From a virus: 43,736 nt of DNA. Shown here in pieces: positions 22,059 to 43,736 of this stretch. Within the stretch, counting starts at the first letter, position 1, and each line of letters opens with the position of its first letter. A program made the position numbers and the translations under genes. The stretch lies in the UHGV virus genome UHGV-0197631; one strand, given 5' to 3'. Below the pieces are notes generated by a model. That model ran no database searches, was not told the DNA's origin, and saw only the letters and a program-made list of their open reading frames with translations.

Positions 22059-22684
22059 GCGTTAGTTTCTCCACAGTCACGACACGCCACGGCGCCCGGA
22101 GCTGCACACTCGCGGGCGTCATTACTTTCTGAAATGCAAAAGATTTTGTAGACCAGTGCTGCATGCTCCTGCAGCTTCGAAATTGAGAGATACAGCTCGT
22201 CGTTAATTGCTGTCTGCTCGTGTGGCTCCACTACCCCATCTTCGATTGCCGAACGAATCTGCTTTGAGTAACTCCCGATCTGTTCGATGACTTCCAGCAG
22301 GCGCTGGTTTATATCGGCGTTCTCTACTTCCTCAATTTCAGGAAGCGATACGAACACCCCACCAGCAGACTGTGCGACAGCATCCGCAATGTAGTGAGTG
22401 CCAGCTGCGCGCTGTAAAACCATTGCCCATCCCAGCGGGAAAATCTGATCGCCATCGGCACGAAGGCGGTTAAATAATGCGTTCTCTGTTACATCCAGCC
22501 AGTCAGCAGCTTCAGCGTAACCACCCGGCAACGCCGCGATAGTTTTTCTGACAGCTTTCACGTACCACTCAGGCTGTTTTTCTACTTTCCAGTGATGCTT
22601 ACCCACGGTTAACTCCTCGTTTCTGTGGTTACGTTTACGCAACTGAACCGCTAACTTTTGAATAGCACTCTGGTAATCCATCAT
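22055..22684 (-). CDS. phage regulatory protein (CII/YdaT-like position), identity uncertain
   Basis: Long ORF downstream of cro; start tentatively at MMDYQ (ATG 22684); position corresponds to cII/ydaT of lambdoid and Rac-type prophages. Confidence 0.35.
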
Positions 22685-22898
22685 TTGGATTTGGATAAAT
22701 ATCAGGACGCAGCTCATGGGGGGTTACGGACCAGTTCCCCAGCTCACAAAGTTGTAAAACTCGTTCCGACGGGACTTGATTGTTAATTACCCAATTAGCG
22801 ACAGATTGAGTAGATTTAAAACCAAAGCGACGAGCTACTTCAGATAAAGACTTTCCCGCAGCCTTTACTGCTTTCTCGGTGTAGTTTTGAGATGACAT
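22635..22898 (-). CDS. cro: Cro-like HTH repressor
   Basis: 87 aa HTH protein divergent from the cI gene across an operator-containing intergenic region. Confidence 0.65.
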   Translation of the reverse strand: MSSQNYTEKAVKAAGKSLSEVARRFGFKSTQSVANWVINNQVPSERVLQLCELGNWSVTPHELRPDIYPNPNDGLPECYSKVSGSVA

Positions 22899-22930
22899 AT
22901 CTTTCTCCTCTGAAATCCAGAGGGGATAAT

Positions 22931-22968
22931 GCTACTTAAAGTAGCAAATTGCAACTACTTAAAATAGA
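22931..22968. promoter_or_regulatory. OR-like operator region (17-bp palindrome TGCTACTTAAAGTAGCA plus degenerate copy)
   Basis: Perfect 17-bp palindrome at 22930-22946 and related CTACTTAAAATAG 20 bp downstream, between divergent cro and cI. Confidence 0.5.
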
Positions 22969-22969
22969 A

Positions 22970-23710
22970 ATGACGAGCGTATGTGATGTGAGTAATCTTC
23001 TACCTATGGTAGAAGAACAGAAGTATCCAGATTTCGCCAAGAGACTAAACGAGTTAATGACAAACAAGGGAATTTCTGTCACCCAACTCAAAAGTCTTGT
23101 TGGCGTTACATATGAAATGGCGCGGCGATACACAATCGGCGCAGCGAAGCCTCGTGCCTCTGTCATGAATAAACTTGCGTTGGCTCTGGGGGTATCGGCT
23201 TCATATTTAGAATATGGTGTTGGCGAGAGAGAAGGATGTAAGGAAATGGCAAGCATCCCCAATCCAACAAAACCCGACGTATACAGGATAGAAGTTTTAG
23301 ATCTTAGCGTTAGCGCAGGACCTGGAACCTATATGCTTTCAGACTATGTTGATGTGCTCTACGCCATTGAGTTCACAACAGAACATGCCCGTTCTCTTTT
23401 CGGTAACCGTTCTCAGGATGATATTAAGGTTATGACTGTAAATGGCGATAGTATGTCCCCTACTCTCGTTTCCGGAGATCGACTGTTTGTCGACATTTCT
23501 GTTCGTCACTTCCAGACTGATGGAATTTACTCTTTCGTTTACGGTAAGACTTTTCATGTTAAACGTCTTCAAATGCAAGGTGACAAGCTAGCCGTTCTTT
23601 CGGATAACCCTGCCTATGAGAAATGGTACATCGATGAAAAATCGCAGGATCAGCTTTATGTAATGGGCAAGGCGTTGATTCATGAGTCAATAAAATACAA
23701 TCGGTTATAG
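22970..23710 (+). CDS. cI: CI-type repressor (HTH_XRE + S24 LexA-like peptidase domain)
   Basis: N-terminal HTH, C-terminal Ser/Lys dyad context (NGDSMSPT ... HVKRL); ORF opens at TTG 22949, ATG candidates at 22970 and 23006. Confidence 0.75.
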   Translation: MTSVCDVSNLLPMVEEQKYPDFAKRLNELMTNKGISVTQLKSLVGVTYEMARRYTIGAAKPRASVMNKLALALGVSASYLEYGVGEREGCKEMASIPNPTKPDVYRIEVLDLSVSAGPGTYMLSDYVDVLYAIEFTTEHARSLFGNRSQDDIKVMTVNGDSMSPTLVSGDRLFVDISVRHFQTDGIYSFVYGKTFHVKRLQMQGDKLAVLSDNPAYEKWYIDEKSQDQLYVMGKALIHESIKYNRL

Positions 23711-23725
23711 TTCTAAGGGCATATA

Positions 23726-24073
23726 ATGGCTAGTGAGCAGGGATTCGAAAAGATTAACATGGATATGTTGGTCTCTTATTTCTCAGAAAAGAATATATAT
23801 CTAAAATGTACACTATGTGGACACGACAGATTGACTGTGCCTCAAGTCAGCGCGAATGTGGGCATGCCATGTACTATGAAACTTGGTAGTTATGTGAATG
23901 TTTTTACTGAAAAAAGCATTTATTCTGATACTGCTAACCAGTATTACTTTTCACTAATATGCAACAATTGTGGAAATGAAATTCATATAAATGCGTTTTC
24001 AGTTTTGAACTGGGTAAATGAAAAGTTCCCAGCAAAAACGGAAGATGAAAAAAATGCCGACGCCGCAAAATAA
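23726..24073 (+). CDS. hypothetical zinc-ribbon-like protein in the rexA-equivalent slot
   Basis: 115 aa; two CxxC pairs (CTLCGH ... CNNCGNE); AT-rich; 16 nt downstream of cI on the same strand. Confidence 0.45.
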   Translation: MASEQGFEKINMDMLVSYFSEKNIYLKCTLCGHDRLTVPQVSANVGMPCTMKLGSYVNVFTEKSIYSDTANQYYFSLICNNCGNEIHINAFSVLNWVNEKFPAKTEDEKNADAAK

Positions 24074-24425
24074 TGTAGTACCATTTAATAGTGAACTTCC
24101 CACAATTAGAAGACACGGTGGAGATGGCGGAGGTGATGACATGCTTGAAGCCCGAGTCGCTAAGTTAGAAGCGAATGTTGAGGATATAAAAACAAATCTC
24201 GCAGAGATGAGAGCTGACATTCGTGATTTGCGAAACGCTCTCTCCGACACCCGACGCGATGTCGCTGTTATCCTTCAAAAACAAATAGATATAGATGAAA
24301 AGTTGTCAAAAAAACCTAGCCTAAGTGAAGTCAACAGCGCTATTTCATCAGCCGTAAATAAACAGATCGCATGGACTGTTGCAACAGGCTTGGCGATTTT
24401 AGGTCTCGCCAAATTTATGTTTTGA
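24045..24425 (+). CDS. hypothetical coiled-coil protein with C-terminal transmembrane anchor (rexB-equivalent slot)
   Basis: Start at MKKMPTPQ overlapping the upstream stop; central heptad-like region (LEARVAKLEANVEDIKTNLAEMRADIRDLRNAL); C-terminal IAWTVATGLAILGLAKFMF. Confidence 0.45.
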   Translation: MKKMPTPQNNVVPFNSELPTIRRHGGDGGGDDMLEARVAKLEANVEDIKTNLAEMRADIRDLRNALSDTRRDVAVILQKQIDIDEKLSKKPSLSEVNSAISSAVNKQIAWTVATGLAILGLAKFMF

Positions 24426-24756
24426 TAAGTTTTTGACTATGACCTGCCCTAGTTTTCTTACTATCGAGGCTAAATCACACAATCCATTGAGTAGTAAATT
24501 CCCTACCGTTTTACACTTAGCCTCCAAAAACTCAACAATACTCTCATGATTGACTTCTCCCCACTTGATGATTAACTAGATCACATACTGATCTCAGCCA
24601 CAATGAAACAATCCATCACGTTCTACAACTCAGCTAACTTCACAATATAATTTTTTGATCATAGCCCCCAAAATATTTTACCTGTAAATTCAATGAATTA
24701 ATTTCAAAATGCGTTTTCATGCCCTTAACTTCTACTTTTTGTAGTTGATTTTTGCA

Positions 24757-24773
24757 ACTTTAAGTAGCAATAT
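24757..24773. promoter_or_regulatory. OL-like operator copy
   Basis: TGCAACTTTAAGTAGCA matches the OR palindrome TGCTACTTAAAGTAGCA at 15 of 17 positions (right half-site identical), ~1.8 kb from OR. Confidence 0.4.
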
Positions 24774-24896
24774 CATTTTACCGACAACGAACAGGCAGGA
24801 CGCCCACGAAGTAGCCGCTTGGGGCATATGAAGTCCAGGATGACTCGTTGAGTCATGTTGTGCCACTAGGCACTCATGTTAAAGCAGGTGTATGAA

Positions 24897-25172
24897 ATGA
24901 AAGTCCAGATTTTAAACAATAACTGTGAAGTCGTTTGGTCATACGACATAGCCGCCCCTGTAGATCAGAGCGGCGATAGCTGGACCAATGGGAAACATCA
25001 GATTATGGCTGGAGTTGTGTTCTCTTTACGCCGTGCTTTGGAACAGGCTGAAGTATTTCCATCAGACCCTGAATGGAAATGGCCTTTTTCTATTTGTCCA
25101 AATTCGGAGAGCACATTTCAGAAAATTGGTCAGAAAGTCGCACTCGAAGAGCATCAGCCAACTGTTTCCTGA
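24897..25172 (+). CDS. hypothetical protein (first ORF downstream of OL-like operator)
   Basis: Start MKVQILNN with AGGTG upstream; overlaps convergent ORF 25090..25335, so one of the two may be spurious. Confidence 0.3.
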   Translation: MKVQILNNNCEVVWSYDIAAPVDQSGDSWTNGKHQIMAGVVFSLRRALEQAEVFPSDPEWKWPFSICPNSESTFQKIGQKVALEEHQPTVS

Positions 25173-25335
25173 TTTTTTCAGGTAACTCGTCGGCATCGCA
25201 GAAACAACAACGCTCGATCATGTTGAAAGCCGATTCGTAGAACTGTTTCTGCTGAGTGTCGCTGAGACAGGAAAAGAGCGACGTTACGATGATTTTATTA
25301 ATTGCATTATCAAGTTCTTTTTCATCAAAAGTCAT
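25090..25335 (-). CDS. hypothetical acidic protein
   Basis: 81 aa; AGGAAA Shine-Dalgarno 8 nt upstream of ATG 25335. Confidence 0.35.
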   Translation of the reverse strand: MTFDEKELDNAINKIIVTSLFSCLSDTQQKQFYESAFNMIERCCFCDADELPEKIRKQLADALRVRLSDQFSEMCSPNLDK

Positions 25336-25591
25336 TTGATTTTCCTTTTATGTATACGGGCTTAAAAGGATACCACCGAGCCTGAAGTGGTGAAAAGACA
25401 GGCACATAACAGCTAAGTATTTTCAACCAAAGAGAATCCTTAGCGTTGTGGTGAATGCGGCTCAGCGCACGCGGGTTAAGGTTGAGGCTGACAGTCGACC
25501 TTCTGTGGATACCCACCCGCCTGGTGTGCAACCTTCGCCAGGCACCGGGAGGCACCCGGCACCACAACTTTATGCTGTGTGTAGTCTTGGC

Positions 25592-28347: not shown

Positions 28348-28697
28348 TGGAGCCATACAGCCTCACACTCGATGAGGCCTGTCATTTTCTCAAGATATCC
28401 AGACCGACTGCCATTAACTGGATACGCACAGGGCGTCTTCAGGCAACACGCAAAGATCCCACTAAGAATAAATCTCCTTACCTCACAACACGACAAGCCT
28501 GCATTGCGGCTCTTCAGTCTCCGCTGCATACTGTCCAGGTGAGCGCGGGTGATGGCATAACAGAGGAAAGAAAATGTCACTCTTCCGCAGAGGTGAAATA
28601 TGGTACGCCAGTTTCACATTGCCGAACGGTAAAAGATTTAAACAGTCTCTTGGAACAAAGGACAAAAGGCAGGCGACAGAACTCCATGACAAGCTAA
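28347..28697 (+). CDS. xis: excisionase-like HTH protein (Xis)
   Basis: [33 protein letters not shown] is an HTH_17/AlpA-Xis type motif; AGAGGTG Shine-Dalgarno upstream; ORF overlaps the int start, so the true C-terminus is uncertain. Confidence 0.5.
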
Positions 28698-29737
28698 AGG
28701 CTGAAGCATGGCGGGTCAGCAAACTTGGTGAAATACCTGATATAACGTTCGAGGAAGCGTGTGTCAGGTGGCTTGAAGAGAAAGCACATAAAAAATCACT
28801 GGACGATGACAAAAGCCGGATCGGATTCTGGCTTCAACATTTCGCAGGAATGCAACTAAGAGACATTACTGAATCAAAAATTTATTCAGCAATGCAGAAA
28901 ATGACGAACCGGCGTCATGAGGAAAACTGGAAACTCAGGGCAGAAGCATGCAGAAAAAAAGGGAAACCTGTTCCAGAATACACGCCAAAACCAGCGTCCG
29001 TTGCAACGAAGGCTACGCATCTTTCATTTATAAAGGCCCTACTAAGAGCCGCAGAGCGTGAATGGAAAATGCTGGATAAGGCACCAATTATTAAAGTGCC
29101 TCAACCAAAGAATAAACGGATCCGCTGGCTGGAGCCCCATGAAGCACAAAGGCTGATTGATGAATGTCCGGAGCCATTAAAGTCTGTTGTTGAATTTGCA
29201 CTGGCAACAGGCTTAAGACGCTCGAACATCATCAACCTTGAATGGCAACAAATAGATATGCAGCGCCGGGTGGCATGGATAAACCCGGAAGAGAGTAAAT
29301 CAAACCGCGCAATTGGCGTTGCGCTGAATGATACTGCATGTCGCGTATTGAAAAAACAAATCGGGAATCATCACCGTTGGGTATTTGTGTACAAGGAAAG
29401 CTGTACCAAACCAGACGGAACGAAAGCGCCAACAGTAAGGAAGATGCGGTATGACGCAAACACAGCCTGGAAAGCGGCGCTGAGACGGGCTGGTATTGAT
29501 GATTTCAGATTTCACGACTTGAGACACACCTGGGCAAGTTGGCTGGTTCAAGCCGGAGTCCCGTTGTCAGTGTTACAGGAAATGGGAGGCTGGGAGTCTA
29601 TCGAAATGGTTCGTCGATATGCTCACCTTGCACCTAATCACCTTACCGAACACGCACGGCAAATAGACTCGATCCTGAACCCATCGGTCCCAAATTTGTC
29701 CCAGTCAAAAAATAAGGAAGGTACAAATGATGTGTAA
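28574..29737 (+). CDS. int: tyrosine integrase (lambda-type)
   Basis: 387 aa; catalytic-region motifs ([10 protein letters not shown] ... RRYAHL); ends 14 nt before the tRNA-Thr-derived att core. Confidence 0.85.
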
Positions 29738-29751
29738 CTTATTGATTTAAA

Positions 29752-29800
29752 TGGTGCCGATAATAGGAGTCGAACCTACGACCTTCGCATTACGAATGCG
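29752..29800 (-). other. att core: 49-nt 3' portion of tRNA-Thr(CGU) (thrW-type), not a complete tRNA gene
   Basis: Reverse complement reads CGCATTCGTAATGCGAAGGTCGTAGGTTCGACTCCTATTATCGGCACCA (anticodon loop with CGT, T-arm, acceptor 3' end, CCA); D-arm and 5' acceptor half are absent. Confidence 0.7.
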
Positions 29801-29984
29801 ACGTTAATATACTTTCAACTGTTTGAATAGTCACTCTAAAACTCATTTTTATCATTATAAAACATACTATTACCATAAATCACCTATTGATTAAAATTGA
29901 CAGGTGTTGATGTTTATTCCCGCAATTTACTTACACCAGCCGTTACATTACTGTAAGACAGAAATCCTCAACTGGAACCAGACT

Positions 29985-31283
29985 ATGGCGCTTTCAAGAC
30001 AAAAACTCACCTTCGAAAGACTTCGCAGATTTACTTTACCGGAAGGAAAAAAACAAACCTTCCTTTGGGATGCGGATGTTACAACTCTGGCATGCCGAGC
30101 AACTAGCGGAGCAAAAGCCTTCGTATTCCAAAGCGTTTATGCGGGAAAAACCCTTCGCATGACCATTGGCAACATTAATGACTGGAGGATTGATGAAGCA
30201 AGGAGCGAGGCAAGACGGTTACAAACATTGATCGATACCGGGATAGATCCGCGAATTGCTAAGGCTGTAAAAATCGCAGAAGCAGCATCTCAGCAGGCAG
30301 AATCACGTAAAACAAAAGTGACTTTCTCCGTCGCCTGGGAAGACTATCTTCAGGAATTGCGAAACGGTATCAGTGCAAAAACCAAGCGTCCATATTCTAC
30401 TCGATACATTGCAGATCACATCAACTTGTCCAGCCGTGGAGGGGAAAGTAAAAAAAGAGGTCAGGGCCCAACCTCAGCTGGACCATTAGCTTGTTTGCTC
30501 GACCTACCGCTATCAGATCTAACACCGGACTATATTGCTGCATGGCTGAGTACAGAAAGACAAAATAGACCGACTGTCACTGCCCATGCTTATCGCCTGC
30601 TGCGTGCTTTCATCAAATGGAGTAATTATCAGAAAAAATATCAGGGAATTATTTCTGGCGATCTTGCACAAGATTACAACGTAAAAAAAATGGTGCCAGT
30701 GTCTGCGAGCAAAGCCGATGATTGCTTGCAAAAAGAACAACTCAAAAGCTGGTTTAGATCCGTGCGTGGCCTTAGTAGCCCTGTTGCGTCAGCGTATCTT
30801 CAGGTGCTTTTACTTACCGGTGCGCGGCGTGAAGAAATTGCGTCACTTCGCTGGTCAGACGTCGATTTCAAATGGGCAAGCATGCGAATTAAAGACAAAA
30901 TCGAAGGAGAACGCATCATCCCTCTCACACCTTATGTTTCTAGCCTATTAAACGCGCTGTCCGCAGCCCCAAATGCTGAGGTAAGTAAGGAGAATTGGGT
31001 TTTCAGAAGTCATAGCAAAAGCGGCAAAATTATTGAACCTCGTTCAGCACACAATCGGGCTTTAGCGCAGGCTGAATTACCGCACATTAGTGTACATGGG
31101 CTACGCCGTAGTTTTGGTACGCTTGCCGAGTGGGTTGAAGTGCCAACTGGTATTGTTGCGCAGATTATGGGCCATAAGCCTAGTGCTCTTGCTGAGAAAC
31201 ACTATCGCCGCCGTCCACTGGATCTGCTGAGAAAATGGCATGAGAAAATTGAGACCTGGATCTTAGAACAGGCTGATATTTGA
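29985..31283 (+). CDS. tyrosine integrase (P4/CP4-57-type)
   Basis: Start at MALSRQKLTFERL; N-terminal arm-binding-like region, C-terminal catalytic region (HGLRRSFGT ... HY); second integrase abutting the same att core. Confidence 0.8.
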   Translation: MALSRQKLTFERLRRFTLPEGKKQTFLWDADVTTLACRATSGAKAFVFQSVYAGKTLRMTIGNINDWRIDEARSEARRLQTLIDTGIDPRIAKAVKIAEAASQQAESRKTKVTFSVAWEDYLQELRNGISAKTKRPYSTRYIADHINLSSRGGESKKRGQGPTSAGPLACLLDLPLSDLTPDYIAAWLSTERQNRPTVTAHAYRLLRAFIKWSNYQKKYQGIISGDLAQDYNVKKMVPVSASKADDCLQKEQLKSWFRSVRGLSSPVASAYLQVLLLTGARREEIASLRWSDVDFKWASMRIKDKIEGERIIPLTPYVSSLLNALSAAPNAEVSKENWVFRSHSKSGKIIEPRSAHNRALAQAELPHISVHGLRRSFGTLAEWVEVPTGIVAQIMGHKPSALAEKHYRRRPLDLLRKWHEKIETWILEQADI

Positions 31284-34361: not shown

Positions 34362-35336
34362 CTACAGAAGACGAATTAACTCTTCCCGTGAAATCCTGCG
34401 ACGATGTACCTCATCATGGCAAACATTACAGAGAGTAATTAAGTTATCCAGTGTATTTTCTCCGCCATCAGCATGATGTTCAATATGATGTAACTCGAGG
34501 AATGTTCTGGGGTCATTTGCGATTTTACGGGCATGAGACCAGTGGCAGTGCCTGCATGCATGATGGTCACGCTCAAGTACAGCGACACGTACAGGATCGG
34601 GGATCTTTCGGTCATGCACTTCAGCCTGTCGATCTTCCTCGAGTAAATAAGCTCCGACTTCTAGCTCCGGTCTACCGGAATTTTTGGTGGCGATTGGCCA
34701 GCCATCTTCTGTACGTAGCTCACGTGTTCGTCGCGCCCACTCCTTGCTATCGTTTGCAAGGTATCGTAGTTCTTCGCCAGTCACGGGACGGCCAACGTTC
34801 TTACGCAGATAAGACAGAATTTTATCTTTCGTGGAGATTTTGCTTCGTCTGAGGACATTAGCTTCATTCCACCGCAGAGCTGCTTCCCTGTCCTGTTCTG
34901 CTGTCATCAGCGCATAAACGTCGGTTTTAAGAACGTTAATCGCACTGGCATGGAGCTCTTCCAGTGTAACCTCTCCTTGTTCGATCATTTCCTTCAACGT
35001 AGTGCCGCTTAATACGGACCAACCAAACTGCACACGCAGCTCTCTGATCCTTCTGGCATATTCACTGATACCCGCAACAACCATCAGTTCGTCACCATGG
35101 ATGATGACGCCGGGATATTTGAGTAAATAAGCCAGAATTCGGTCACGGGCTGAATTGCAATTCTCATCATTCATCAAAGAACTGCCTAAATCCCGCAGCA
35201 AATGATTGGCGGGGATTAATGCCAAAACCTGTTCCCGTAGGGAATCATCCTTGAGCTTAAACTCAAAGTCGGTAATCAACGCCAGAAGCTGTTTACGCAG
35301 CGTTTCCGGTACGCTCTTCTTCGATCTTCTCGCCAT
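34362..35336 (-). CDS. HNH endonuclease with tandem N-terminal repeat domains (putative restriction endonuclease)
   Basis: C-terminal HNH motif (HHACRHCHWSH...ELHHIEHHADGGENTLDNLITLCNVCHDEVH); two similar internal segments (EYARRIRELRVQFGWSV / EWARRTRELRTEDGWPI); overlaps the methyltransferase gene by 44 nt. Confidence 0.65.
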   Translation of the reverse strand: MARRSKKSVPETLRKQLLALITDFEFKLKDDSLREQVLALIPANHLLRDLGSSLMNDENCNSARDRILAYLLKYPGVIIHGDELMVVAGISEYARRIRELRVQFGWSVLSGTTLKEMIEQGEVTLEELHASAINVLKTDVYALMTAEQDREAALRWNEANVLRRSKISTKDKILSYLRKNVGRPVTGEELRYLANDSKEWARRTRELRTEDGWPIATKNSGRPELEVGAYLLEEDRQAEVHDRKIPDPVRVAVLERDHHACRHCHWSHARKIANDPRTFLELHHIEHHADGGENTLDNLITLCNVCHDEVHRRRISREELIRLL

Positions 35337-36423
35337 TTTGAATTAGGTATTCCATTAAATTGAGAACGTAGGTCGCAATCTTCTGCGCAAAAACTGGTGG
35401 TACTGCATTGCCAATTTGCCTTGCGATTTCGGTTTTTGAACCCACAAAAACAAATTCATCCGGGAAACTCATCAGGCGCGCGGCTTCACGATGCGTAATT
35501 GGACGATGTTGCTCTGGATGTAGATAACGCCCCTTCTCAGGCTTAAAGAACTCCGTGCGGATCGTGACAGAAGGCCTCTCCCACCACAAACGGCCAAACA
35601 AATCCGTTCCACCCGAGGTTTTTTTAATCCAGCAGGCAGGGGTAATGTCAGGTCTATTCTTTTGCAAATCAAACCGGTTTCCCCCTACCGGAACAGCTCG
35701 GTAGCGTTCCTGCGAAAGCGCAGTTGGATTTCGACCAAAGTGGAGATCTAATGGGGGTGGAAGATCACGCACCTCAGTCCCAACCGGCTCAGGCAAATCA
35801 CCTATAAAATCTCTGACTGTCAGCCAGGCTGGTAGATCCGCCCCCTTATCAGGATTCTGGTGCGACTGTACAGGTGGGAACGTTGGGATGCTATTCAGCA
35901 GGAATCGCTCTTTTTTAATTCCAATTGCAATAGCACGTTTGCGCGTCTGCGGAGCCCCGTAGTCGGCTGTGTTAAGGACAGAAGGATTCAGAAGCAGAAA
36001 ACCCATGCTTTCAGCACGAGCACAAATGTCCTGAAATTCATCACTGGACAAGAGGCCCGGAACATTTTCCATCACAAATACAGAAGCAGAAGACCTCTCA
36101 ATGATATCCATATACGGCTCCCAGAGCGCCCGTCGATGGTCCCTTTCTCGGTTCTTGTTGAGCAGGCTGAATCCCTGGCATGGCGGGCCGCCGATAACAA
36201 TATCAGCCTCAGGAATGCTGTTTTCAGCAATCCACTCTTCGATGTTCGCTACAATGCCATGCTCGCCAAAGTTGGCATTGTATGTACTGATAGCCGCCTT
36301 GTCATTGTCCAGAGCTAGGACGCTTTCAAAATGAGCGCCATTTTCCCCCTTCATGAAGCCGCAGGATAAACCGCCAGCGCCACAAAACAGATCAATGACT
36401 TTTAATTTATTGATTTTACTCAT
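35293..36423 (-). CDS. DNA (cytosine-5)-methyltransferase
   Basis: Motif I FCGAGG, motif IV PPCQGFS, ENV motif; 376 aa. Confidence 0.85.
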   Translation of the reverse strand: MSKINKLKVIDLFCGAGGLSCGFMKGENGAHFESVLALDNDKAAISTYNANFGEHGIVANIEEWIAENSIPEADIVIGGPPCQGFSLLNKNRERDHRRALWEPYMDIIERSSASVFVMENVPGLLSSDEFQDICARAESMGFLLLNPSVLNTADYGAPQTRKRAIAIGIKKERFLLNSIPTFPPVQSHQNPDKGADLPAWLTVRDFIGDLPEPVGTEVRDLPPPLDLHFGRNPTALSQERYRAVPVGGNRFDLQKNRPDITPACWIKKTSGGTDLFGRLWWERPSVTIRTEFFKPEKGRYLHPEQHRPITHREAARLMSFPDEFVFVGSKTEIARQIGNAVPPVFAQKIATYVLNLMEYLIQNGEKIEEERTGNAA

Positions 36424-36734: not shown

Positions 36735-37571
36735 GTGGCTAACGAAAATACCGAGTACGAGAAACTTACCCAAGAGATCTACCAGGCCATATGCAATGCT
36801 GAGGGAGTTAAGAATTTATCAGTTCAGCATAATGTAAAAGTCCCAGGAAAATCTGGCTGTAACCACCAGATAGATGTTTACTGGGAATTTGAAATAATGG
36901 GTGTAACACACCGCGTGGCCATCGAATGTAAAAACTATTCAAGCGAAGTTTCTGTTGGGAAAGTACGCGACTTTTTCGGTGTACTACATGATATCAGTAA
37001 TGTGAATGGTATTTTCGTGACCAAAGTTGGTTACCAAAGTGGAGCTGTAAAATTTGCCAATCACTACGGTATCAATCTGAAAGAAATACGATTCCCAACA
37101 GCAACAGACTGGAAAGGAAGAGTAAAAGATATTGTCATAACAATCACTGCGTTCTTTGCTAATATCAAAGAGCGAAACATTCATTTTGATTTTGAGTGGA
37201 TCCGTGAAAACACAAATGTGAAAGAAGGAGATCGCCTAGTACTTTCAGGCATGGCTGATGAGATAAAAATAGTTGATGCGAATGGAGAACTAATCACAAC
37301 CCTATACGACATTGAAAATGAACTCCCGCGAGATGTTGAGATAATTGATAAAACCTTTGAAAAAAAATTCAATGAGGCATTCATTACTACTCCATCTGGC
37401 GATAAATTTAAAATTTACGGGATCAGCTATTTGTACGATGTTGTTTCTGAATCTGAAACATCGATTAGCGAAGGCGATTTGATTGCTCGTGCAATACTCA
37501 AAGATGTCGGTTCGGGAGCAATAAAATTCTTTGACCAAAGCGGGAATATTCGTGATGTTCGGGATGTGTAA
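36735..37571 (+). CDS. Mrr-like PD-(D/E)xK nuclease domain protein with uncharacterised C-terminal domain
   Basis: GTG start with AGGAGA Shine-Dalgarno; N-terminal QIDVYWEF...VAIECKNY (D...ExK) with Mrr-type context; ~150 aa C-terminal region of no recognisable family; AT-rich. Confidence 0.5.
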   Translation: MANENTEYEKLTQEIYQAICNAEGVKNLSVQHNVKVPGKSGCNHQIDVYWEFEIMGVTHRVAIECKNYSSEVSVGKVRDFFGVLHDISNVNGIFVTKVGYQSGAVKFANHYGINLKEIRFPTATDWKGRVKDIVITITAFFANIKERNIHFDFEWIRENTNVKEGDRLVLSGMADEIKIVDANGELITTLYDIENELPRDVEIIDKTFEKKFNEAFITTPSGDKFKIYGISYLYDVVSESETSISEGDLIARAILKDVGSGAIKFFDQSGNIRDVRDV

Positions 37572-37839
37572 CTAAATATATCAAGTGAAGTTATTCGTAA
37601 TGTGAACAGCCATGACTTTCGTGGCTATTTTCATTGCAGGTAAAAAACTTACTTCAGCTTCTCGCGCAAAGCTGTTCTTGATGTCTCCGAGACTGTCCGC
37701 CCCCTGCCAAAAGCTGACATTGCCAACATCGAAGGACATTGCTCTATGAGGCGCAGGTCAAACGCATTACAGGATCTTAGTGAGCAGGTTTCGGCATTCA
37801 AAAAATAAAGGCAAGGTGGAAACCACCATGCCTATTAAA

Positions 37840-38868
37840 CTAAGCGTTATCTATGTATTTCAATGCATAGCTTTCGAAGCTGTTTATTTTATTAAAATAA
37901 TCAGGAATAAATGCATGGACAAATGTATCAAGGTCAGTATTAATCGTGTTTGTATTGATTAATTCAATCATGTGTTCAGGTTCGCTGTCCAAAAAGAGAA
38001 TTGCAAGTATGAGACCGAACTTTGGTGCTATTTCTCTAAATATCAAATAAGTAAGTTCACCGTAAGGCTTCACGCTTTCATTCAAAATGCCAGAGATATA
38101 CTCCCTGCCATTCATGCCGCGTTTATTATAGGAATCTATAATTTCGTAAAAATCGCTGCCATCGATATCAACTTCAGGGTCAAAATCATTGAGTGATACA
38201 TCGTTGTTTAGACAATATCTTACTGTTGAAATACACAAGTAAAGAAAAAGAAGGGTTCCCAGACTACCTTGGCGTTTTACTGGATTTCCGGACTCTGATA
38301 GGTATCGATATTGGCAATAGTACGCAATGGTTTCACACAAACTAATATGACGTATCAAGAGACTATCATCATTACAAGCGCGTGATATACTAAAATCAGC
38401 GGCATGACCGAGTTCATGCACAAAGAGGTCTGTAGATGTCACTCCAAATGGATCATCTTGAGTAAAAATGAAATGTTCATCATCTCTGTTGGAAATACAA
38501 AAACCCTCAGAACTTTTTCTGATTTGATTCTCAATATGAAGCCACTCAACCTTGTTCAGATTAACTTTTAGGCAATTCTCAACAAAATCGCGCGCTACAT
38601 TAAATTCACGCTCTGAAATAGGATTGCCTAATGAAGATGGGTCAGTGGAACTCAAACGCTTCAGAAATTCAGAAGAAAAATATAAAGGCGAAACCAGATC
38701 AACAAGAGCCGTGACTGAATTCAGGAGTTTATTGTGCACATCCCCTACAATTTCTTCGCCAGTCCTGTGTAATGCCTCATCAAATTCCTGGAAAGAGTTT
38801 CCATTTTTAGTAGCAATCACGCATTGCGTTTCAAGTTCATAGTATTTTTTTCGCAGTATTGAATGCAT
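37840..38868 (-). CDS. HExxH motif protein (putative metallopeptidase-like), unknown function
   Basis: Single HExxH (VHELGHAAD) in 342 aa; AT-rich; convergent with the Mrr-like gene. Confidence 0.4.
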   Translation of the reverse strand: MHSILRKKYYELETQCVIATKNGNSFQEFDEALHRTGEEIVGDVHNKLLNSVTALVDLVSPLYFSSEFLKRLSSTDPSSLGNPISEREFNVARDFVENCLKVNLNKVEWLHIENQIRKSSEGFCISNRDDEHFIFTQDDPFGVTSTDLFVHELGHAADFSISRACNDDSLLIRHISLCETIAYYCQYRYLSESGNPVKRQGSLGTLLFLYLCISTVRYCLNNDVSLNDFDPEVDIDGSDFYEIIDSYNKRGMNGREYISGILNESVKPYGELTYLIFREIAPKFGLILAILFLDSEPEHMIELINTNTINTDLDTFVHAFIPDYFNKINSFESYALKYIDNA

Positions 38869-39387
38869 AATTCTCACCAAATATAAATTAAGTATATTAT
38901 TTAAGAACGATATCCTTCTTTTGCAGAATCACTATATCATCTTCTTTCTTACTTTGGCAGGTTTAACAATCCGTCTGTAATGTCTAGCATTCTAAATGCG
39001 TTCTATGCCTTTAATGTACCCCTGCTGTCGATGTTATATCACCTTGCTTTTCGGTGTACCGGTAGCGTGATAAGATGCGTATTGAATCATTGACACTGAT
39101 TGATGTAGAACTAGACATCAACTCAACATAAGTTAAATTTTCCCGTCAGAAACGGCCTGCTCGACATTTATTAAAAAAGGCAATATTTGTCCTTTATCAA
39201 CTCAGTTGTTAGCAAAAGTCCGAACCTCCGCTCATCGCTCGAAGCGGTCTGTTGATGTTTACTGTGAAACAGGCAGATTCGTGCAAGTAGCGGACAATGT
39301 AAGAAAAAATAACGGGTCGGACTAACCTTGCGAAGGCTTTCTAAGTCTGTCTGCAAACATCTCTTCAAAAGGCTGAGGCCCTTATTG

Positions 39388-39678
39388 GGTAATGACTCCA
39401 ACTTACTGATAGTGTTTTATGTTCAGATAATGCCCGATGACCTTGTAATGCAGCTCCACCGATTTTGAGAACGACAGTGACTTCCGTCCCAGCCTTGCCA
39501 GATGTTGTCTCAGATTCAGGTTATGTCGCTCAATGCGCTGAGTGTAACGCTTGCTGATAACGTGCAGCTTTCCCTTCAGGCGTGATTCATACAGCGGCCA
39601 GCCATCCGTCATCCATACCACGACCTCAAAGGCCGACAGCAGGCCCAGAAGACGCTCCAGCGTGGCCAACGTGCGTTA
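39388..39678 (-). mobile_element. IS1 remnant (terminal inverted repeat plus 3' end of insB)
   Basis: Begins with IS1 terminal repeat GGTAATGACTCCAACTTA...; encodes the InsB C-terminus ([66 protein letters not shown]); similarity stops near 39678. Confidence 0.8.
39403..39669 (-). pseudogene. insB: insB C-terminal fragment of IS1
   Basis: 88-codon ORF matching the InsB C-terminus from memory; N-terminal part of the transposase absent. Confidence 0.75.
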
Positions 39679-39773
39679 CCTAACAATAAACCTGTTTAAA
39701 TATCCAGATAAAAACATTCAATCTGGGTCAAATGAGTGATACAGTTTCACCCATAAGACCCAATGGAGGCAAT

Positions 39774-41207
39774 ATGTCTGAATTTGAATTACTGGCGCAG
39801 GATCTGCTTGAGAAAGCAGAAGCGGAAGAACAACTGCGACAGGAAAATGATAAAAAGCTGCTCGGGCAGGTGCTGGAAATCTATGACCAGAAGTACGTGG
39901 CTGAACTGCTTAGAAAAGTTGGTAAAAATGAGTGGAGTCGCGAGACTCTTAATCGCTGGATTAATGGTAAGTGCTCACCTAAGACGCTGACGTTAGCCGA
40001 AGAGGAACTTCTACGAAAAATGCTTCCGGAAGCGCCTGCACATCACCCTGACTATGCCTTCCGGTTTATTGACCTGTTTGCTGGGATTGGAGGTATACGG
40101 AAGGGCTTCGAAACCATCGGTGGCCAGTGCGTTTTTACCAGTGAATGGAATAAAGAGGCTGTGCGCACATATAAAGCTAACTGGTTTAACGATGCTCAGG
40201 AACACACTTTCAATCTCGATATTCGGGAAGTCACGCTCAGTGATAAACCTGAAGTACCTGAAAACGATGCCTATGCTTACATTAATGAGCATGTGCCGGA
40301 TCATGATGTACTTCTAGCAGGTTTCCCCTGTCAACCGTTCAGCCTTGCGGGCGTAAGCAAGAAAAACTCGCTCGGGCGCGCGCATGGTTTCGAATGTGAG
40401 GCTCAGGGAACGCTTTTCTTCGATGTGGCGCGTATTATACGCGCAAAAAAACCTGCCATCTTTGTTCTTGAAAACGTTAAAAACCTGAAGAGCCATGACA
40501 AGGGTAAAACCTTTAAAGTCATCATGGATACCCTCGACGAACTGGGCTATGAAGTTGCGGATGCAGCTGAGATGGGCAAAAACGATCCTAAAGTTATCGA
40601 CGGAAAGCACTTTTTACCTCAGCACCGAGAACGTATCGTTTTGGTCGGTTTCCGTCGTGATCTGAACATTCACCAGGGCTTTACCCTGCGCGATATTAGT
40701 CGTTTTTATCCGGAACAGCGTCCGTCATTTGGCGAACTGCTGGAACCCGTGGTTGACAGCAAATATATACTGACGCCGAAACTCTGGGAGTATCTCTATA
40801 ACTACGCCAAAAAGCACGCAGCTAAGGGTAACGGATTCGGTTTTGGCCTCGTTAATCCTGAAAATAAAGAAAGCATTGCCCGTACGCTTTCTGCTCGCTA
40901 TCACAAAGACGGGTCTGAAATTCTGATAGACCGTGGCTGGGATATGGCCACAGGTGAAACAGACTTCGCGAACGAAGAAAATCAGGCGCATCGGCCCCGC
41001 AGGCTGACTCCACGAGAGTGCGCGCGCCTTATGGGTTTTGAAAAAGTAGATGGCAGGCCTTTTCGCATTCCTGTGTCAGACACTCAGTCGTACAGGCAGT
41101 TCGGTAACTCCGTAGTGGTGCCCGTGTTTGAAGCCGTAGCCAAACTGCTTGAACCTTATATCCTGAAAGCGGTTAATGCCGATTCGTGCAAGGTTGAACG
41201 AATCTGA
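39774..41207 (+). CDS. ecoRIIM: EcoRII-type DNA (cytosine-5)-methyltransferase (Dcm-like, CCWGG specificity inferred)
   Basis: From [12 protein letters not shown] with GGAGG Shine-Dalgarno; motifs FAGIGG, PCQPFS, ENV; collinear with E. coli Dcm and with M.EcoRII as I recall it. Confidence 0.85.
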
Positions 41208-41212
41208 TCGCT

Positions 41213-41236
41213 CCTCCCGGTATTTATGCCGGGAGA
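41213..41236. terminator. bidirectional hairpin between convergent ecoRIIM and ecoRIIR
   Basis: TCCCGG tatttatg CCGGGA stem-loop in the 33-nt gap between the two stops. Confidence 0.45.
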
Positions 41237-41240
41237 TAAT

Positions 41241-42449
41241 CTATGGAATATCTGCGTAAAGCCCTGTCAGCTCAGCAATAAACGCACCTAGCGTCATTAG
41301 CTCAGCTCTCACCGCCTCCGGGTATTTTTTGTGCAGCGATGATGGCACGACCAATCTGACACCCGACTCCCGCATCTCCCGATATTGAGCCAGAGAAACT
41401 CCCTCTTGGAGTGTAAACAGATGCACCTGATGAATTTTATCGGCCTCATTCAGTATCTGACGCCAGCGATCCTTACAGGTAGTCTTGACTGCCAGCATGC
41501 GCAGATTTTCTACGGGAAACTCAGTATCGTGGTAAGCCCCTGCGGAAGGGAAAAGGAAATCGGGTTTTTTATTACCTTCTGTGATGGCCTGCGTCGCAAA
41601 GTGTCGCAGGCCGTGCTCAATGAATAGATGCTCCAGGTGCAGTTCCAGCGACTTCCCGGCTCTGGATTTACGGCGATTGCTGACAGAATTGGCCAGCGCA
41701 ATAAATTCATCCACAGAGCCAAATCCTTTCCGGATGATATCCAGAACATGCAGTTCCTCAACCAATAGAAATATGTCGTACTCCACGCGCCGGCGGTCAA
41801 GAAGTTGCTCATCCGGATCAAGGGAATTTTTCACATAATGGCTGGCTGCATACTGAATAATTTCACTTCCCGACGGAAAGCGCAGGTGCCAGTCTTCAGG
41901 TAGAATATATTTATGATTTACTGGCGCTTGCTGTAGAGATAGTCCGCCTAGAATCTGTCCTGCGGGGCCGGATATAAGCGCTCCGGGTATAACTTCACCA
42001 ATAGCGGTCTCAATGACGTCCTCTTCATCAGTGCTGGCGCATACCCAAATATTTACTTCCTTACAGTCCCCCCCTTGCTCATCAAGCTTGAAAGCCAGGA
42101 GCGTCAGAGCCCCTGTATTTTCAGGATTCTGAAGTGGGCTGCCTCTACCCCAGCGGGTAATCCTTTTTTCATTCCGGGTTTTACCAAAATGACGGCTGTT
42201 ATAATAAATTGCCCGGGCTTCGCTGTCAGGGCAATCATGCGATGACACATGTGCGGTGAGAAAAACCGAAGGGTTCAGTTCACGGGTATGGTTGATAGAC
42301 GGAAAGAGTTTTTCAACGATACCTGAAGGGATATAAAGCCCTACCTGGTGACCACCTGTTGCGCCGGTATCGTTGGCGGAAAGGCGTTTGATGTAGACGA
42401 AGTAATTCTCACATGCGATCTCAAGTAGCCAGTTGTGGAAAACCGACAT
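41241..42449 (-). CDS. ecoRIIR: EcoRII-type restriction endonuclease
   Basis: 402 aa from MSVFHNWLLEIACENYFVYIKRLSANDTGATGGHQVGLYIP, matching my recollection of R.EcoRII; GGGG Shine-Dalgarno 6 nt upstream of ATG 42449; convergent with the methyltransferase as in the EcoRII system. Confidence 0.85.
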   Translation of the reverse strand: MSVFHNWLLEIACENYFVYIKRLSANDTGATGGHQVGLYIPSGIVEKLFPSINHTRELNPSVFLTAHVSSHDCPDSEARAIYYNSRHFGKTRNEKRITRWGRGSPLQNPENTGALTLLAFKLDEQGGDCKEVNIWVCASTDEEDVIETAIGEVIPGALISGPAGQILGGLSLQQAPVNHKYILPEDWHLRFPSGSEIIQYAASHYVKNSLDPDEQLLDRRRVEYDIFLLVEELHVLDIIRKGFGSVDEFIALANSVSNRRKSRAGKSLELHLEHLFIEHGLRHFATQAITEGNKKPDFLFPSAGAYHDTEFPVENLRMLAVKTTCKDRWRQILNEADKIHQVHLFTLQEGVSLAQYREMRESGVRLVVPSSLHKKYPEAVRAELMTLGAFIAELTGLYADIP

Positions 42450-42607
42450 AAGCATCCCCTGTTACCCTGAAACTCTACTCACCATTTTTTCATGATTATA
42501 TACAAACAGCCAGAAAGGCTGTTACAGACGATTTGATCTGCAACCTATTGGTTAAATTAATGTATCAAAAACGATGGTTTTTGTGACAGTCTTGAAAAGT
42601 CCTGACT

Positions 42608-42632
42608 TGTCATTTTCAGAAGACGACTGCAC
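42608..42632. repeat. Tn402/Tn5053-family 25-bp terminal inverted repeat (IRt-like)
   Basis: TGTCATTTTCAGAAGACGACTGCAC, close to the remembered IRt of Tn402/class 1 integrons; coincides with an abrupt rise in GC content. Confidence 0.55.
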
Positions 42633-42750
42633 CAATTGACGGGGCGTAACGCCAGGTGTGCAGTCGGCTCCTGACCACGCAATATCAGAAGTCATCTGCA
42701 CCAATCTCGACTATGCTCAATACTCGTGTGCACCAAAGCGAGGTGTGAGC

Positions 42751-43233
42751 ATGGCGTCAGACACATTACCAATTGCCGAGCAGGGCGTGGCCACCCTGCC
42801 CGATGCGGCATGGGCACAGGCCCGGCACCGGACCGAAATCATCGGGCCGCTGGCAGCGCTTGAAGTGGTTGGGCATGAAGCCGCCGATGCCGCTGCTCAA
42901 GCGCTGGGCCTATCCAGGCGGCAGGTGTATGTCCTGATCCGGCGTGCCCGGCAAGGTGCTGGGTTTGTGACGGACCTGGTTCCCGGCCAGTCCGGCGGCG
43001 GAAAAGGCAAGGGACGCTTGCCGGAATCAGTTGAGCGCATCATCCGCGAGTTGCTGCAAAAGCGCTTCCTGACCAAGCAGAAGCGTAGCCTGGCGGCGTT
43101 CCACCGCGAGGTCGCGCAGGCTTGCAAAGCGCAAAAGCTACGGGTGCCGGCGCGCAACACTTTGGCCCTGCGGATCGCCGGCCTCGACCCGCTCAAGGCC
43201 ACTCGCCGCCGGGAAGGGGTCGGTTCCGGCTGA
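42751..43233 (+). pseudogene. tniA: tniA (Tn402/Tn5053-family transposase), truncated after ~160 codons
   Basis: N-terminus IAEQGVATLPDAAWAQARHRTEIIGPLAA...GLSRRQVYVLIRRARQGAGFVTDLVPGQSGGGKGKGRLPE matches TniA from memory; reading frame ends at the inserted Tn3-family inverted repeat. Confidence 0.65.
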
Positions 43234-43253
43234 GGGCGAAATGACACCCTAAG
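43216..43253. repeat. 38-bp terminal inverted repeat of a Tn3-family transposon
   Basis: GGGGTCGGTTCCGGCTGAGGGCGAAATGACACCCTAAG: starts GGGG, ends TAAG, and contains the tnpA stop codon, as in Tn3/Tn21-family ends. Confidence 0.55.
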
Positions 43254-43736
43254 CTTTCGGTTCCTTGGGCCAAAGATATTCGCCAGTCAGTAGAATGTGC
43301 GCCCAGCCCAATGGGGATATGTGGGGAAGAAATTCAGGGGGAACATCCAACCCTTCGTTCCGCCGCTCCGTGACGGCATGACCAAGATGGACGGTATTCC
43401 AGTAAATGATCACCGCAGTCAATAAATTGAGCCCAGCGATTCGGTAGTGCTGCCCCTCTGTCGTGCGATCGCGAATTTCCCCCTGCCTCCCGATACGGAG
43501 CGCATTTTTGAGCGCATGGTGGGCCTCTCCCTTGTTAAGACCGATCTGAGCACGCCGCTGCATGTCCGTATCCAGGATCCACTCAATAATGAAAAGGGTC
43601 CGTTCAATACGACCAACTTCACGAAGCGCAACTGCAAGGTTGTTTTGTCGTGGGTAAGAAGCGAGCTTGCGCAGGAGTTGGCTGGGCCTGATTTTGCCAG
43701 CGGTCATCGTCGCGGCACAACGGAAAATATCAGGCC
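43249..43736 (-). CDS. tnpA: Tn3-family transposase TnpA, C-terminal part (gene continues beyond window end)
   Basis: C-terminal region (LLTAVIIYWNTVHLGHAVTERR...HISPLGWAHILLTGEYLW) typical of Tn3-family TnpA; stop lies inside the 38-bp repeat. Confidence 0.65.
   Translation of the reverse strand, partial: PDIFRCAATMTAGKIRPSQLLRKLASYPRQNNLAVALREVGRIERTLFIIEWILDTDMQRRAQIGLNKGEAHHALKNALRIGRQGEIRDRTTEGQHYRIAGLNLLTAVIIYWNTVHLGHAVTERRNEGLDVPPEFLPHISPLGWAHILLTGEYLWPKEPKA

Follow-up and report, generated by a model that had tools for sequence, protein, structure and literature searches.

An EcoRII restriction–modification system in a plasmid-type block beside an IS1 end within a thrW island

The methyltransferase of the EcoRII restriction–modification system (M.EcoRII) modifies CCWGG at C5 of the inner cytosine and acts, through its N-terminal domain, as a repressor of its own promoter. 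The endonuclease (R.EcoRII) cleaves unmethylated CCWGG only once a second site binds the N-terminal effector domain, lifting autoinhibition. Dcm of Escherichia coli, an orphan methyltransferase paired with the mismatch endonuclease Vsr, likewise has CCWGG as its target. The mechanism of EcoRII, a type IIE enzyme, is treated in reviews (PMC3874152, PMC12707154), and Dcm neutralises the killing that follows loss of EcoRII (PMC3874152). In the EcoRII loci of IncN plasmids (N3/R46 lineage; PDB 1NA6, 3HQF and 3HQG), the two genes are convergent with 33 bp between their stop codons, the methyltransferase gene has an IS1 remnant of approximately 290 bp upstream, and the endonuclease gene has a Tn402-type end downstream. 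The 290-bp IS1 remnant adjoining ecoRIImet has been described for IncN1 plasmids (PMC5027574).

A chromosomal copy is present in E. coli 39EVA (NZ_CP138416.1), where the block consisting of the IS1 remnant and ecoRIIM/R keeps its junction with the IncN backbone and is bracketed by IS26 copies, forming an IS26 mosaic at a core-genome site near hemW. Inverted IS1 copies form the ends of composite transposons of the Tn1681 type. Islands of the CP4-6 type, located at thrW in E. coli, contain a thrW 3′ repeat adjoining an intF-like integrase gene, followed by AlpA-like, YfjI and YfjJ genes and, in relatives, by genes for a GTPase, DUF932, RadC, CbeA and CbtA; a prophage is arranged in tandem at the same attachment site.

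In the window (the whole stretch of DNA that was analysed, 43,736 nucleotides of virus genome UHGV-0197631), the EcoRII genes have the same convergent order, spacing and neighbours as in the IncN plasmids (Table 1). The two arrangements differ in location only: the IS1 IRR here abuts thrW-island DNA, whereas in the plasmids it abuts IncN backbone (...AAAGAGAACC). The best explanation of the locus as a whole, to which we assign a probability of roughly 0.85, is that the pair is EcoRII itself, lying in a plasmid-type block that was captured into the thrW island through an IS1-ended insertion.

Table 1. Features of the window discussed in the text
Feature	Position	Strand	Description
thrW (tRNA-Thr) 3′ fragment	29753–29800	−	48 nt; attachment repeat common to prophage (left) and island (right)
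Island integrase gene	29910–31283	+	457 aa, P4/IntF-like tyrosine recombinase; PF13356 (Arm-DNA-bind_3) and PF00589
HNH nuclease gene	34362–35336	−	324 aa; PF01844; overlaps C5 methyltransferase gene
C5 DNA methyltransferase gene	35293–36423	−	376 aa; PF00145
Mrr_cat nuclease-like protein gene	36735–37571	+	PF04471; adjoins insertion
HExxH protein gene	37840–38868	−	342 aa; no family match; adjoins insertion
CCCTTATTG	39379–39387		Left copy of 9-bp IS1 target-site duplication (junction A)
IS1 3′ remnant	39388–39683	−	Intact IRR and C-terminal part of insB; ~295 bp
ecoRIIM	39774–41207	+	477 aa, C5 cytosine methyltransferase with N-terminal DNA_meth_N (repressor) domain
ecoRIIR	41241–42455	−	404 aa, type II restriction endonuclease EcoRII
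Tn402/Tn5053-family IRt	42608–42632	+	25 bp, TGTCATTTTCAGAAGACGACTGCAC; read directly from sequence; repeat family D1
tniA 5′ stub	42751–43215	+	~155 codons, cut by Tn5403 end; HTH_28 domain
Tn5403 (Tn3-family) end	43216–43736	−	Terminal IR 43216 to ~43253 (~38 bp) and C-terminal 152 codons of tnpA; runs off window

The ecoRIIM open reading frame spans 39732–41207 (+), with its real start at ATG 39774, preceded by a GGAGG ribosome-binding site. Its product contains PF00145 (E = 1e-78) and PF18284 (DNA_meth_N), scores 944 bits (cutoff 710) against NCBIfam NF007772, the subfamily that also includes Dcm, and matches the solved Dcm-like structures 3ME5 and 3LX6 with E values of 1e-200 or better. 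An alternative start of ecoRIIR at 42449, the coordinate used in the preliminary description, would give a product of 402 aa. The endonuclease contains both EcoRII domains at nearly full length, PF09217 (EcoRII-N, E = 6e-61) and PF09019 (EcoRII-C, E = 1e-70), and 402 of its 404 residues are identical to those of the solved R.EcoRII (PDB 1NA6) in a full-length alignment (E = 6e-277). The two differences are residue 88, which we take to be the engineered R88A of the 1NA6 crystal, and N110, in place of which the crystallised protein has D110. M.EcoRII and R.EcoRII each match their plasmid copies without a difference (for M.EcoRII, those in plasmid sequences L001 and L002), positions 39690–42600 are 100% identical to an E. 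coli plasmid sequence (H148), and the features of the window show near-identity over kilobases, far more than chance would give.

As the preliminary description had proposed, this pair is EcoRII itself, an already known, textbook system within an ordinary mobile-element mosaic. Neither low identity nor a Vsr-type nuclease was found: the domain search gave no Vsr family match for the gene adjoining the methyltransferase gene, and that neighbour encodes R.EcoRII, so that the partner here is a two-domain restriction endonuclease, in contrast to the Vsr of Dcm. Virtually no probability attaches to a Dcm-like methyltransferase beside an unrelated or Vsr-type nuclease, or to a diverged homologue with another specificity. 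Dcm and M.EcoRII do share one NCBIfam subfamily, and homologues exist, with approximately 200 complete E. coli chromosomes carrying an EcoRII-like pair that is 80% identical, but the DNA of the window is 99–100% identical to plasmid EcoRII loci, not 80%, and these readings are ruled out by the two endonuclease domains, the 1NA6 identity and the protein identity with the plasmid copies.

Given this sequence identity, the pair would be expected to be expressed and to have EcoRII-type activity, with CCWGG specificity, methylation of the inner cytosine and two-site cleavage. A promoter scan gave no strong sigma-70 match upstream of ecoRIIM or ecoRIIR, and promoter and terminator matches in 39300–42700 were no more numerous than in shuffled controls. 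No avoidance of CCWGG was found, the 90 sites in the window being near the mononucleotide expectation in every segment. In hosts bearing Dcm, gain or loss of EcoRII should be cost-free because CCWGG is already methylated (PMC3874152), which may account for the easy spread of EcoRII. A strain carrying the system would be expected to restrict unmethylated CCWGG DNA from dcm-negative donors, a point relevant to cloning and conjugation work on such isolates; the practical value is small, as the system is fully characterised and is flanked by debris of a kind standard in resistance plasmids.

Downstream of the endonuclease gene are the Tn402-type and Tn3-type ends that had been noted previously. 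A repeat related to the Tn402 IRt lies internally at 42669–42705. The match to plasmid L001 ends at 42608, and that to L002, which contains the whole of tniABQ, continues onward. The tniA stub can be aligned as far as 43217 with the intact tniA of L002, its open reading frame continues to a stop at 43233, and the exact 160-aa fusion product is present in 237 blocks of the collection. The Tn5403 end is 100% identical along its length to the annotated Tn5403 copy in L001, with the C terminus of tnpA (PF01526) extending from 43249 to the window end and reading towards the IR; the IR pair was defined in locus L018 (16482–16523 versus 20145–20104). Tn5403 has no 5-bp duplication, its flanks being GGGAA on one side and AGGTG on the other.

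At least 1,761 PLSDB plasmids carry at least 80% of 39300–43000, and EcoRII copies of at least 99% identity in complete E. coli genomes are mostly located on plasmids, in line with the earlier characterisation of the system as classically plasmid-borne and with the remnant described for IncN1 plasmids (PMC5027574). Two contigs with IncN backbone (L057 and L058) have the order VirB4...TrbM, IS1 remnant, EcoRII, tniA stub and Tn5403; in L058, arsR follows a tnpA truncated after 282 aa, and the same junctions occur in the island. Chromosomal EcoRII-type pairs are not rare: besides the 80%-identical homologues, there is the plasmid-type copy in 39EVA. The IS1 remnant and ecoRIIM/R of that strain are 99.5% identical to those of the window and also chromosomal; the block in the window differs from that of 39EVA in being IS1-ended and in lying inside the thrW island.

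In PLSDB, no plasmid was found with the full block, which extends from the IS1 remnant to HupE. The ncr–HupE part is 99.7% identical to another thrW island and only 93–96% identical to plasmids, and the whole segment may therefore not be plasmid-derived. The reverse direction of transfer, in which EcoRII is native to this island family and was taken from it by plasmids, is very unlikely. It would fit the wide distribution of the island with EcoRII (more than 200 blocks of the collection) and the existence of chromosomal homologues, but related islands are without the pair (E. coli R32_14_1F, and L014, where the cargo pair has different surroundings), the boundary of the block is an IS1 end accompanied by a target duplication, the block brings with it Tn402 and Tn5403 fragments typical of plasmids, and the described plasmid arrangement has the IRR abutting the IncN backbone.

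The IS1 remnant preceding the pair, previously recognised as a 3′ scar, has an IRR (GGTAATGACTCC...) that begins at 39388. It covers positions 44–131 of the 131 in PF03400, so that the 3′ part only is present, and its alignment to full IS1 copies stops at 39680–39683. At junction A, CCCTTATTG is followed by the IRR; at junction B, on the gajB side, the order is IRR and then CCCTTATTG, flanking an outward IS1 IRR in four related loci (L007, L050, L051 and L056). L007 has both junctions, with an IS1 remnant of 80 bp and a full IS1 between them. The left IS1 end and its 9 bp are inside the window, whereas the matching right end and 9 bp are present only in those four loci, and among the related loci examined the right-hand IS1 with junction B was never seen in a contig that also had junction A joined to EcoRII. 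Within the remnant, SNPs of full IS1 extend through approximately nt 117 in L050 and through approximately nt 278 in L056, and there are none in L051, a pattern that indicates independent crossovers between inverted IS1 copies.

It is extremely improbable that island and plasmid DNA were joined by faulty assembly, as a chimeric contig across IS1. IS1 repeats are multicopy, and several draft assemblies have breaks close to the region; against this, many independent assemblies share the identical junction A, including contigs of 4.55, 4.77, 4.87 and 4.90 Mb as well as ENA and JGI metagenome assemblies, and the remnant is just ~295 bp long and flanked by the target duplication.

The arrangement suggests an IS1-ended insertion, with 9 bp of its target duplicated, whose outer end is the IS1 remnant. 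The remnant would be a working transposon end rather than just a scar, which makes the previously suggested capture of a plasmid-derived segment into the island more specific in its route. In the model that we propose, the block of plasmid origin would comprise the IS1 remnant, ecoRIIM, ecoRIIR, the Tn402 IRt, the tniA stub and Tn5403, and most likely entered the thrW island as an IS1-ended composite. Its left end would be the intact IRR of the remnant; at its other end, a complete, inverted IS1 lying to the right of the window would have provided the IRR. Insertion would have duplicated the 9-bp target between the gene for the 342-aa protein and a Gabija-like gene pair (here gajA/gajB), so that the far boundary would read complete IS1 with its IRR outward, then CCCTTATTGATGCATTTATCC, then gajB. 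Later recombination between inverted IS1 sequences may have flipped the segment in some strains, and an IS1-associated deletion may have removed it in another, leaving the deletion derivative L007. This locus and the inversion isomers are the grounds on which we infer the transposition mechanism and a right-hand IS1 in the window's own genome. The window and related loci resemble the Tn1681 type in their outward IS1 ends, 9-bp target duplication, and inversion or deletion through IS1 copies, and differ from it in that one ‘IS1’ here is a ~295-bp remnant providing just its IRR.

A different history, which we consider unlikely, is that a lone complete IS1 inserted into the island first, and that a plasmid was then joined to it by homologous recombination with its 290-bp IS1 remnant, the resulting cointegrate being trimmed later by deletions, with no composite transposition. 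The mosaic IS1 remnants demonstrate that IS1 homology recombines here, and the region is heavily rearranged, as seen in the variants L018/L052, L050, L051 and L055. A simple IS1 insertion, however, gives one junction an IRL and the other an IRR, whereas here an IRR with the 9-bp repeat is present at both outer junctions, and no IncN backbone DNA is left in any island locus examined.

Insertion as an IS1-ended composite would show concretely how an addiction or defence module of plasmids can become fixed in a chromosomal island, by way of an IS remnant with one intact end and a complete partner IS. We give even odds to the broader proposal that the IS1 stump of ~295 bp, which on IncN plasmids has long passed for an inert scar, may be live as a transposon end and, with a complete inverted IS1, moved EcoRII, together with adjoining DNA of transposons and metal resistance, into a thrW defence island (containing the C5 methyltransferase/HNH, Mrr-like/HExxH and Gabija-like genes) that is now near-identical in Citrobacter chromosomes and beside an E. 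coli-type prophage, the segment flipping repeatedly through IS1 recombination. A walk rightward via the tniA-stub product reached the window-equivalent 53.2 kb only, and the one homologue found for the NcrA protein was a cluster representative 94% identical to it. Three assemblies break approximately 4.7 kb beyond ncrA, and E. coli CAVP773 has an IS5-family element at the equivalent place; the repeat at these breaks therefore need not be IS1.

As had been supposed, the host element is a chromosomal integrative island. The thrW fragment is the reverse complement of the 3′ part of thrW, as judged against the intact thrW of L038 and L039; ARAGORN found no whole tRNA in the window, and related island loci start matching the window at 29746–29752. 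The window covers one boundary of the thrW island, and the second lies beyond it. E. coli matches over the integrase stretch (H48 and H51) include a gene annotated intF, and 214 blocks of the collection contain the exact integrase protein. The same island, again with EcoRII and approximately 99.96–100% identical to the island part of the window, occurs in contigs of 4.5–4.9 Mb, and some chromosome-size contigs with the island and EcoRII have Citrobacter portucalensis-like flanks. The thrW repeat adjoining an IntF-like integrase gene, the module order and the tandem prophage are shared with islands of the CP4-6 type, from which this one differs in its cargo of C5 methyltransferase/HNH genes, Mrr-like/HExxH pair and EcoRII mosaic; among islands of complete E. 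coli genomes, the closest shares only 91.5% identity with that of the window and is without EcoRII.

The preliminary description had counted two cytosine-methylating restriction–modification systems in the island. The second C5 methyltransferase is clear, but its partner is only an HNH protein that is closest to McrA and type IV models: the best solved relative of the HNH domain is McrA (6GHC, E = 3e-8), and the best PADLOC match of the two genes (34362–36423) is a type IV methyl-directed REase model. As a restriction–modification system, this pair is putative and only partly supported. The Mrr-like/HExxH pair is absent, at the megablast level, from 5,426 complete E. coli genomes and PLSDB, and no relative of the 342-aa protein was found in GTDB species-representative genomes.

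The island integrase gene adjoins an inverted thrW fragment, an orientation puzzle that is explained by the layout in E. coli R32_14_1F and by that of CP4-6 in K-12, in which the integrase gene lies at the end far from intact thrW.

Two long convergent ORFs occupy positions 39732–42455 of the window. The first encodes a protein with C5 cytosine methyltransferase and DNA_meth_N domains, which passes the NCBIfam Dcm subfamily model with 944 bits (cutoff, 710 bits), and the product of the second matches crystallised EcoRII endonuclease (PDB 1NA6) over its full length, with 402 of 404 residues identical (E = 6e-277). The two differences lie at residue 88, which we take to be the engineered R88A of the crystal, and at residue 110 (N110 versus D110). 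Plasmids of E. coli and of K. pneumoniae (the latter IncFII/IncN) encode both proteins without a single residue changed, and a 41.9-kb E. coli plasmid (database match H148) has 100% DNA identity across 39690–42600. The pair is EcoRII, as the preliminary description had proposed; a low-identity pair or a Vsr-type partner is ruled out by the match to 1NA6 and by the EcoRII-N and EcoRII-C domains. The extent first assigned, 39774–42449, runs from the methyltransferase start to an alternative endonuclease start giving 402 amino acids. In the seven chromosomal loci compared, both reading frames are unbroken, without frameshift or stop, and just three single-residue variants occur. The system is a textbook one, and the mosaic of mobile elements that surrounds it is of a standard kind.

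Features of the window, from the prophage to the right-hand transposon ends
Feature	Position	Strand	Description
Lambdoid prophage	1–~29.7 kb		98–99% identical to E. coli prophages
Prophage integrase	28574–29737		Identical to one normally beside thrW and proA in E. coli
thrW fragment	29753–29800		Reverse complement of last 48 nt of thrW
Island genes, from thrW rightwards			IntF-like integrase, 147-aa ORF, YfjI (DUF3987), YfjJ, C5 methyltransferase/HNH, Mrr_cat protein, 342-aa HExxH protein
HNH protein			324 aa; only a C-terminal HNH domain
C5 methyltransferase	35293–36423		Solved relatives include 3G7U and M.HaeIII
IS1 right inverted repeat (IRR)	from 39388		Sequence begins GGTAATGACTCCAACTTA
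IS1 remnant	39388–~39683	−	Encodes only C-terminal part of InsB
EcoRII methyltransferase	39774–41207 (ORF from 39732)	+	477 aa; ATG at 39774 preceded by GGAGG ribosome-binding site
EcoRII endonuclease	41241–42455	−	404 aa; EcoRII-N and EcoRII-C domains
Tn402-family IRt	42608–42632		25 bp, downstream of endonuclease gene; TGTCATTTTCAGAAGACGACTGCAC
tniA	starts 42751		Cut at 43215 by Tn5403 terminal repeat
Tn5403 end	right of 43215		tnpA C-terminus continues past window end

EcoRII had been called classically plasmid-borne, in agreement with its distribution: at least 1,761 PLSDB plasmids, mostly conjugative and from Klebsiella, Escherichia, Enterobacter and Citrobacter, carry at least 80% of 39300–43000, and among 5,426 complete genomes of E. 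coli an EcoRII query finds 618 plasmid places and 270 chromosomal ones. Most of the chromosomal places hold a different pair, approximately 80% identical and present in about 200 genomes. This DNA identity spans 95% of the EcoRII length, for example at NZ_CP194903.1 3676513–3679287 (H161), and the pair is an EcoRII homologue of the chromosome, separate from the allele found on plasmids. E. coli 39EVA has a plasmid-type copy in its chromosome, 99.5% identical, within an IS26-bracketed mosaic that keeps an IncN backbone junction. Given these homologues and the 39EVA copy, chromosomal EcoRII-type pairs are no rarity, and the IncN block has been captured into the chromosome at least twice, by different routes.

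The window's prophage is of E. coli type and is not the same as the prophages beside the island in other loci. Its stretch 22631–25372 (~40% GC), which does not align to the otherwise 95–99% identical E. coli prophages of loci L040 and L041, is probably a swapped module. No whole tRNA was found in the window; within 29738–29910, one 48-nt thrW 3′ fragment is common to prophage and island, so the two are integrated in tandem. To the left of this fragment, related loci carry different prophages, an integrase element with Gabija-like genes or Citrobacter core genes, a variety that marks the thrW site as an integration hotspot. The island of E. coli R32_14_1F is 91.5% identical with the same layout, its integrase lying at the end far from thrW, and CP4-6 of K-12 is laid out in the same way; it then continues with a Gabija-like helicase/nuclease pair, a GTPase and DUF932. 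By exact-protein look-ups, the island part of the window, EcoRII included, is ~99.96–100% identical in many assemblies, among them contigs of 4.55, 4.77, 4.87 and 4.90 Mb, which, with the thrW fragment and the IntF-like integrase, bears out the chromosomal island context. Several related loci have core flanks matching Citrobacter portucalensis (96.6% DNA, 99% protein), and the cargo at 36.6–39.35 kb is absent from the complete E. coli genomes searched and from PLSDB plasmids.

The IS1 remnant, Tn402-type end and Tn3-type end said to flank the pair are all present. The remnant has exactly the arrangement given for IncN1 plasmids related to R46, in which 290 bp of IS1, with only truncated insB and the IRR, lie between ecoRIImet and orf207 (PMC5027574). 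Left of the IRR, the window and its close relatives have the 9 bp CCCTTATTG (junction A, beside the 342-aa gene), whereas in IncN-backbone contigs the same IRR abuts ...AAAGAGAACC, and in other plasmids other sequences. In the related locus L007, which has the island cargo and lacks EcoRII, the cargo is followed by CCCTTATTG, by 80 bp of the IS1 remnant and by a complete IS1 of opposite orientation; a second CCCTTATTG then leads to the Gabija-like genes gajB and gajA, GTPase and DUF932. An IS1 IRR thus forms each outer end, flanked by a direct repeat of 9 bp. Nine base pairs is the size of the IS1 target duplication. In loci L050, L051 and L056 the remnant and EcoRII are joined to the gajB side (junction B), an inverted arrangement, and the segment is thus found facing either way within the island. 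Between the remnant and the full IS1 of L007 there are ~30 differences, and full-IS1 variants are carried in the remnant through ~nt 117 in L050, through ~nt 278 in L056 and not at all in L051; such differing crossover points between the inverted IS1 sequences indicate that the inversions were independent. Next to EcoRII the remnant is a recombinant in several strains; the IS1 sequences compared lie at ~6530–6940 in L050, L051 and L056 and at 8634–9481 in L007.

The simplest history would comprise three steps, drawing on a distal IS1 and a junction B known from L007 and from L050, L051 and L056, not from loci of window-type arrangement. A unit bounded on one side by the remnant IRR and on the other by that of a complete IS1 in inverse orientation would have inserted between the 342-aa gene and gajB; IS1 recombination would later have flipped it in some strains; and in L007 a deletion between remnant nt 80 and the inner end of the complete IS1 would have removed the whole segment. 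A less likely course is that a lone IS1 inserted first and a plasmid then integrated by homology, because one junction would then carry an IRL. The earlier suggestion that a plasmid-derived segment was captured into the island is supported. What is new, to judge from these junctions, is that an IS1 stump would have acted as one end of a transposon, accompanied by a target duplication and by inversion isomers; as IS biology this is tidy yet unsurprising.

A related internal repeat accompanies the Tn402 IRt. In a related locus with a complete Tn5403, the 5-bp flanks are unequal (GGGAA versus AGGTG), which argues that this element did not simply insert into tniA; in that right-hand variant IS630-like and IS26 sequences follow, and further variants have arsRDABC or a mer operon. 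In the common variant, the DNA past the window holds Tn5403 tnpA cut after 282 aa, an IS110-family fragment, another Tn3-family repeat and arsR, then a ygiW-rcnA-rcnR-ncrA cluster and HupE. Loci L016 (17366–18332) and L018 (20146–20837) show this variation of the mosaic right of the window. An IncN-backbone contig (L058) has identical junctions all the way from the tniA stub, across the cut Tn5403, up to arsR, so at least that much of the segment existed on an IncN plasmid. The metal-resistance cluster is 99.7% identical to that in the thrW island of E. coli CAVP773 and only 93–96% identical to plasmids, so part of the segment may have a source other than plasmids. That island (L038; NZ_CM176349.1 469764–503562) carries the ygiW-rcnA-rcnR-ncrA-HupE nickel/cobalt cluster with arsR truncated and EcoRII absent; the cluster thus circulates among thrW islands as well as plasmids. 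Three draft assemblies break ~4.7 kb past ncrA, where in CAVP773 the corresponding position is taken by an IS5-family element.

R.EcoRII is autoinhibited, and its cleavage requires a second site. The stretch leading from the IS1 remnant to the methyltransferase start and the one upstream of the endonuclease gene are identical to plasmid copies, so regulation should be the same as in plasmids; a simple promoter scan of the regions upstream of both genes gave nothing distinctive. According to PMC12707154, which cites Som and Friedman 1994, M.EcoRII acts as repressor of its own gene and has a repressor domain fused to it. M.EcoRII and Dcm share the target CCWGG, and host killing after EcoRII loss is attenuated by Dcm (PMC3874152). 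No depletion of CCWGG was found in the window, which fits a host already methylating those sites, without proving so.

The island had also been credited with two cytosine-methylating restriction–modification systems. Two C5 methyltransferases are indeed present, but a second such system is not established: the best solved match of the HNH domain is E. coli McrA (6GHC; E = 3e-8), and the best PADLOC match is a type IV methyl-directed model. The HNH gene (within 34362–36423) overlaps the C5 methyltransferase gene by 44 nt, and its product may cut either as a methyl-dependent nuclease or as an HNH restriction enzyme of type II. Adjoining the EcoRII insertion, a two-gene module of low GC content (37–38%; 36735–38868) encodes a 278-aa Mrr_cat nuclease-like protein and the 342-aa protein, which has a HELGH zinc-peptidase motif and no family match; the two may be an undescribed defence pair. 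The module recurs, ~99.4% identical, in the different island context of locus L014 (10001–12134), between CbtA/CbeA genes and an invasin-like gene.
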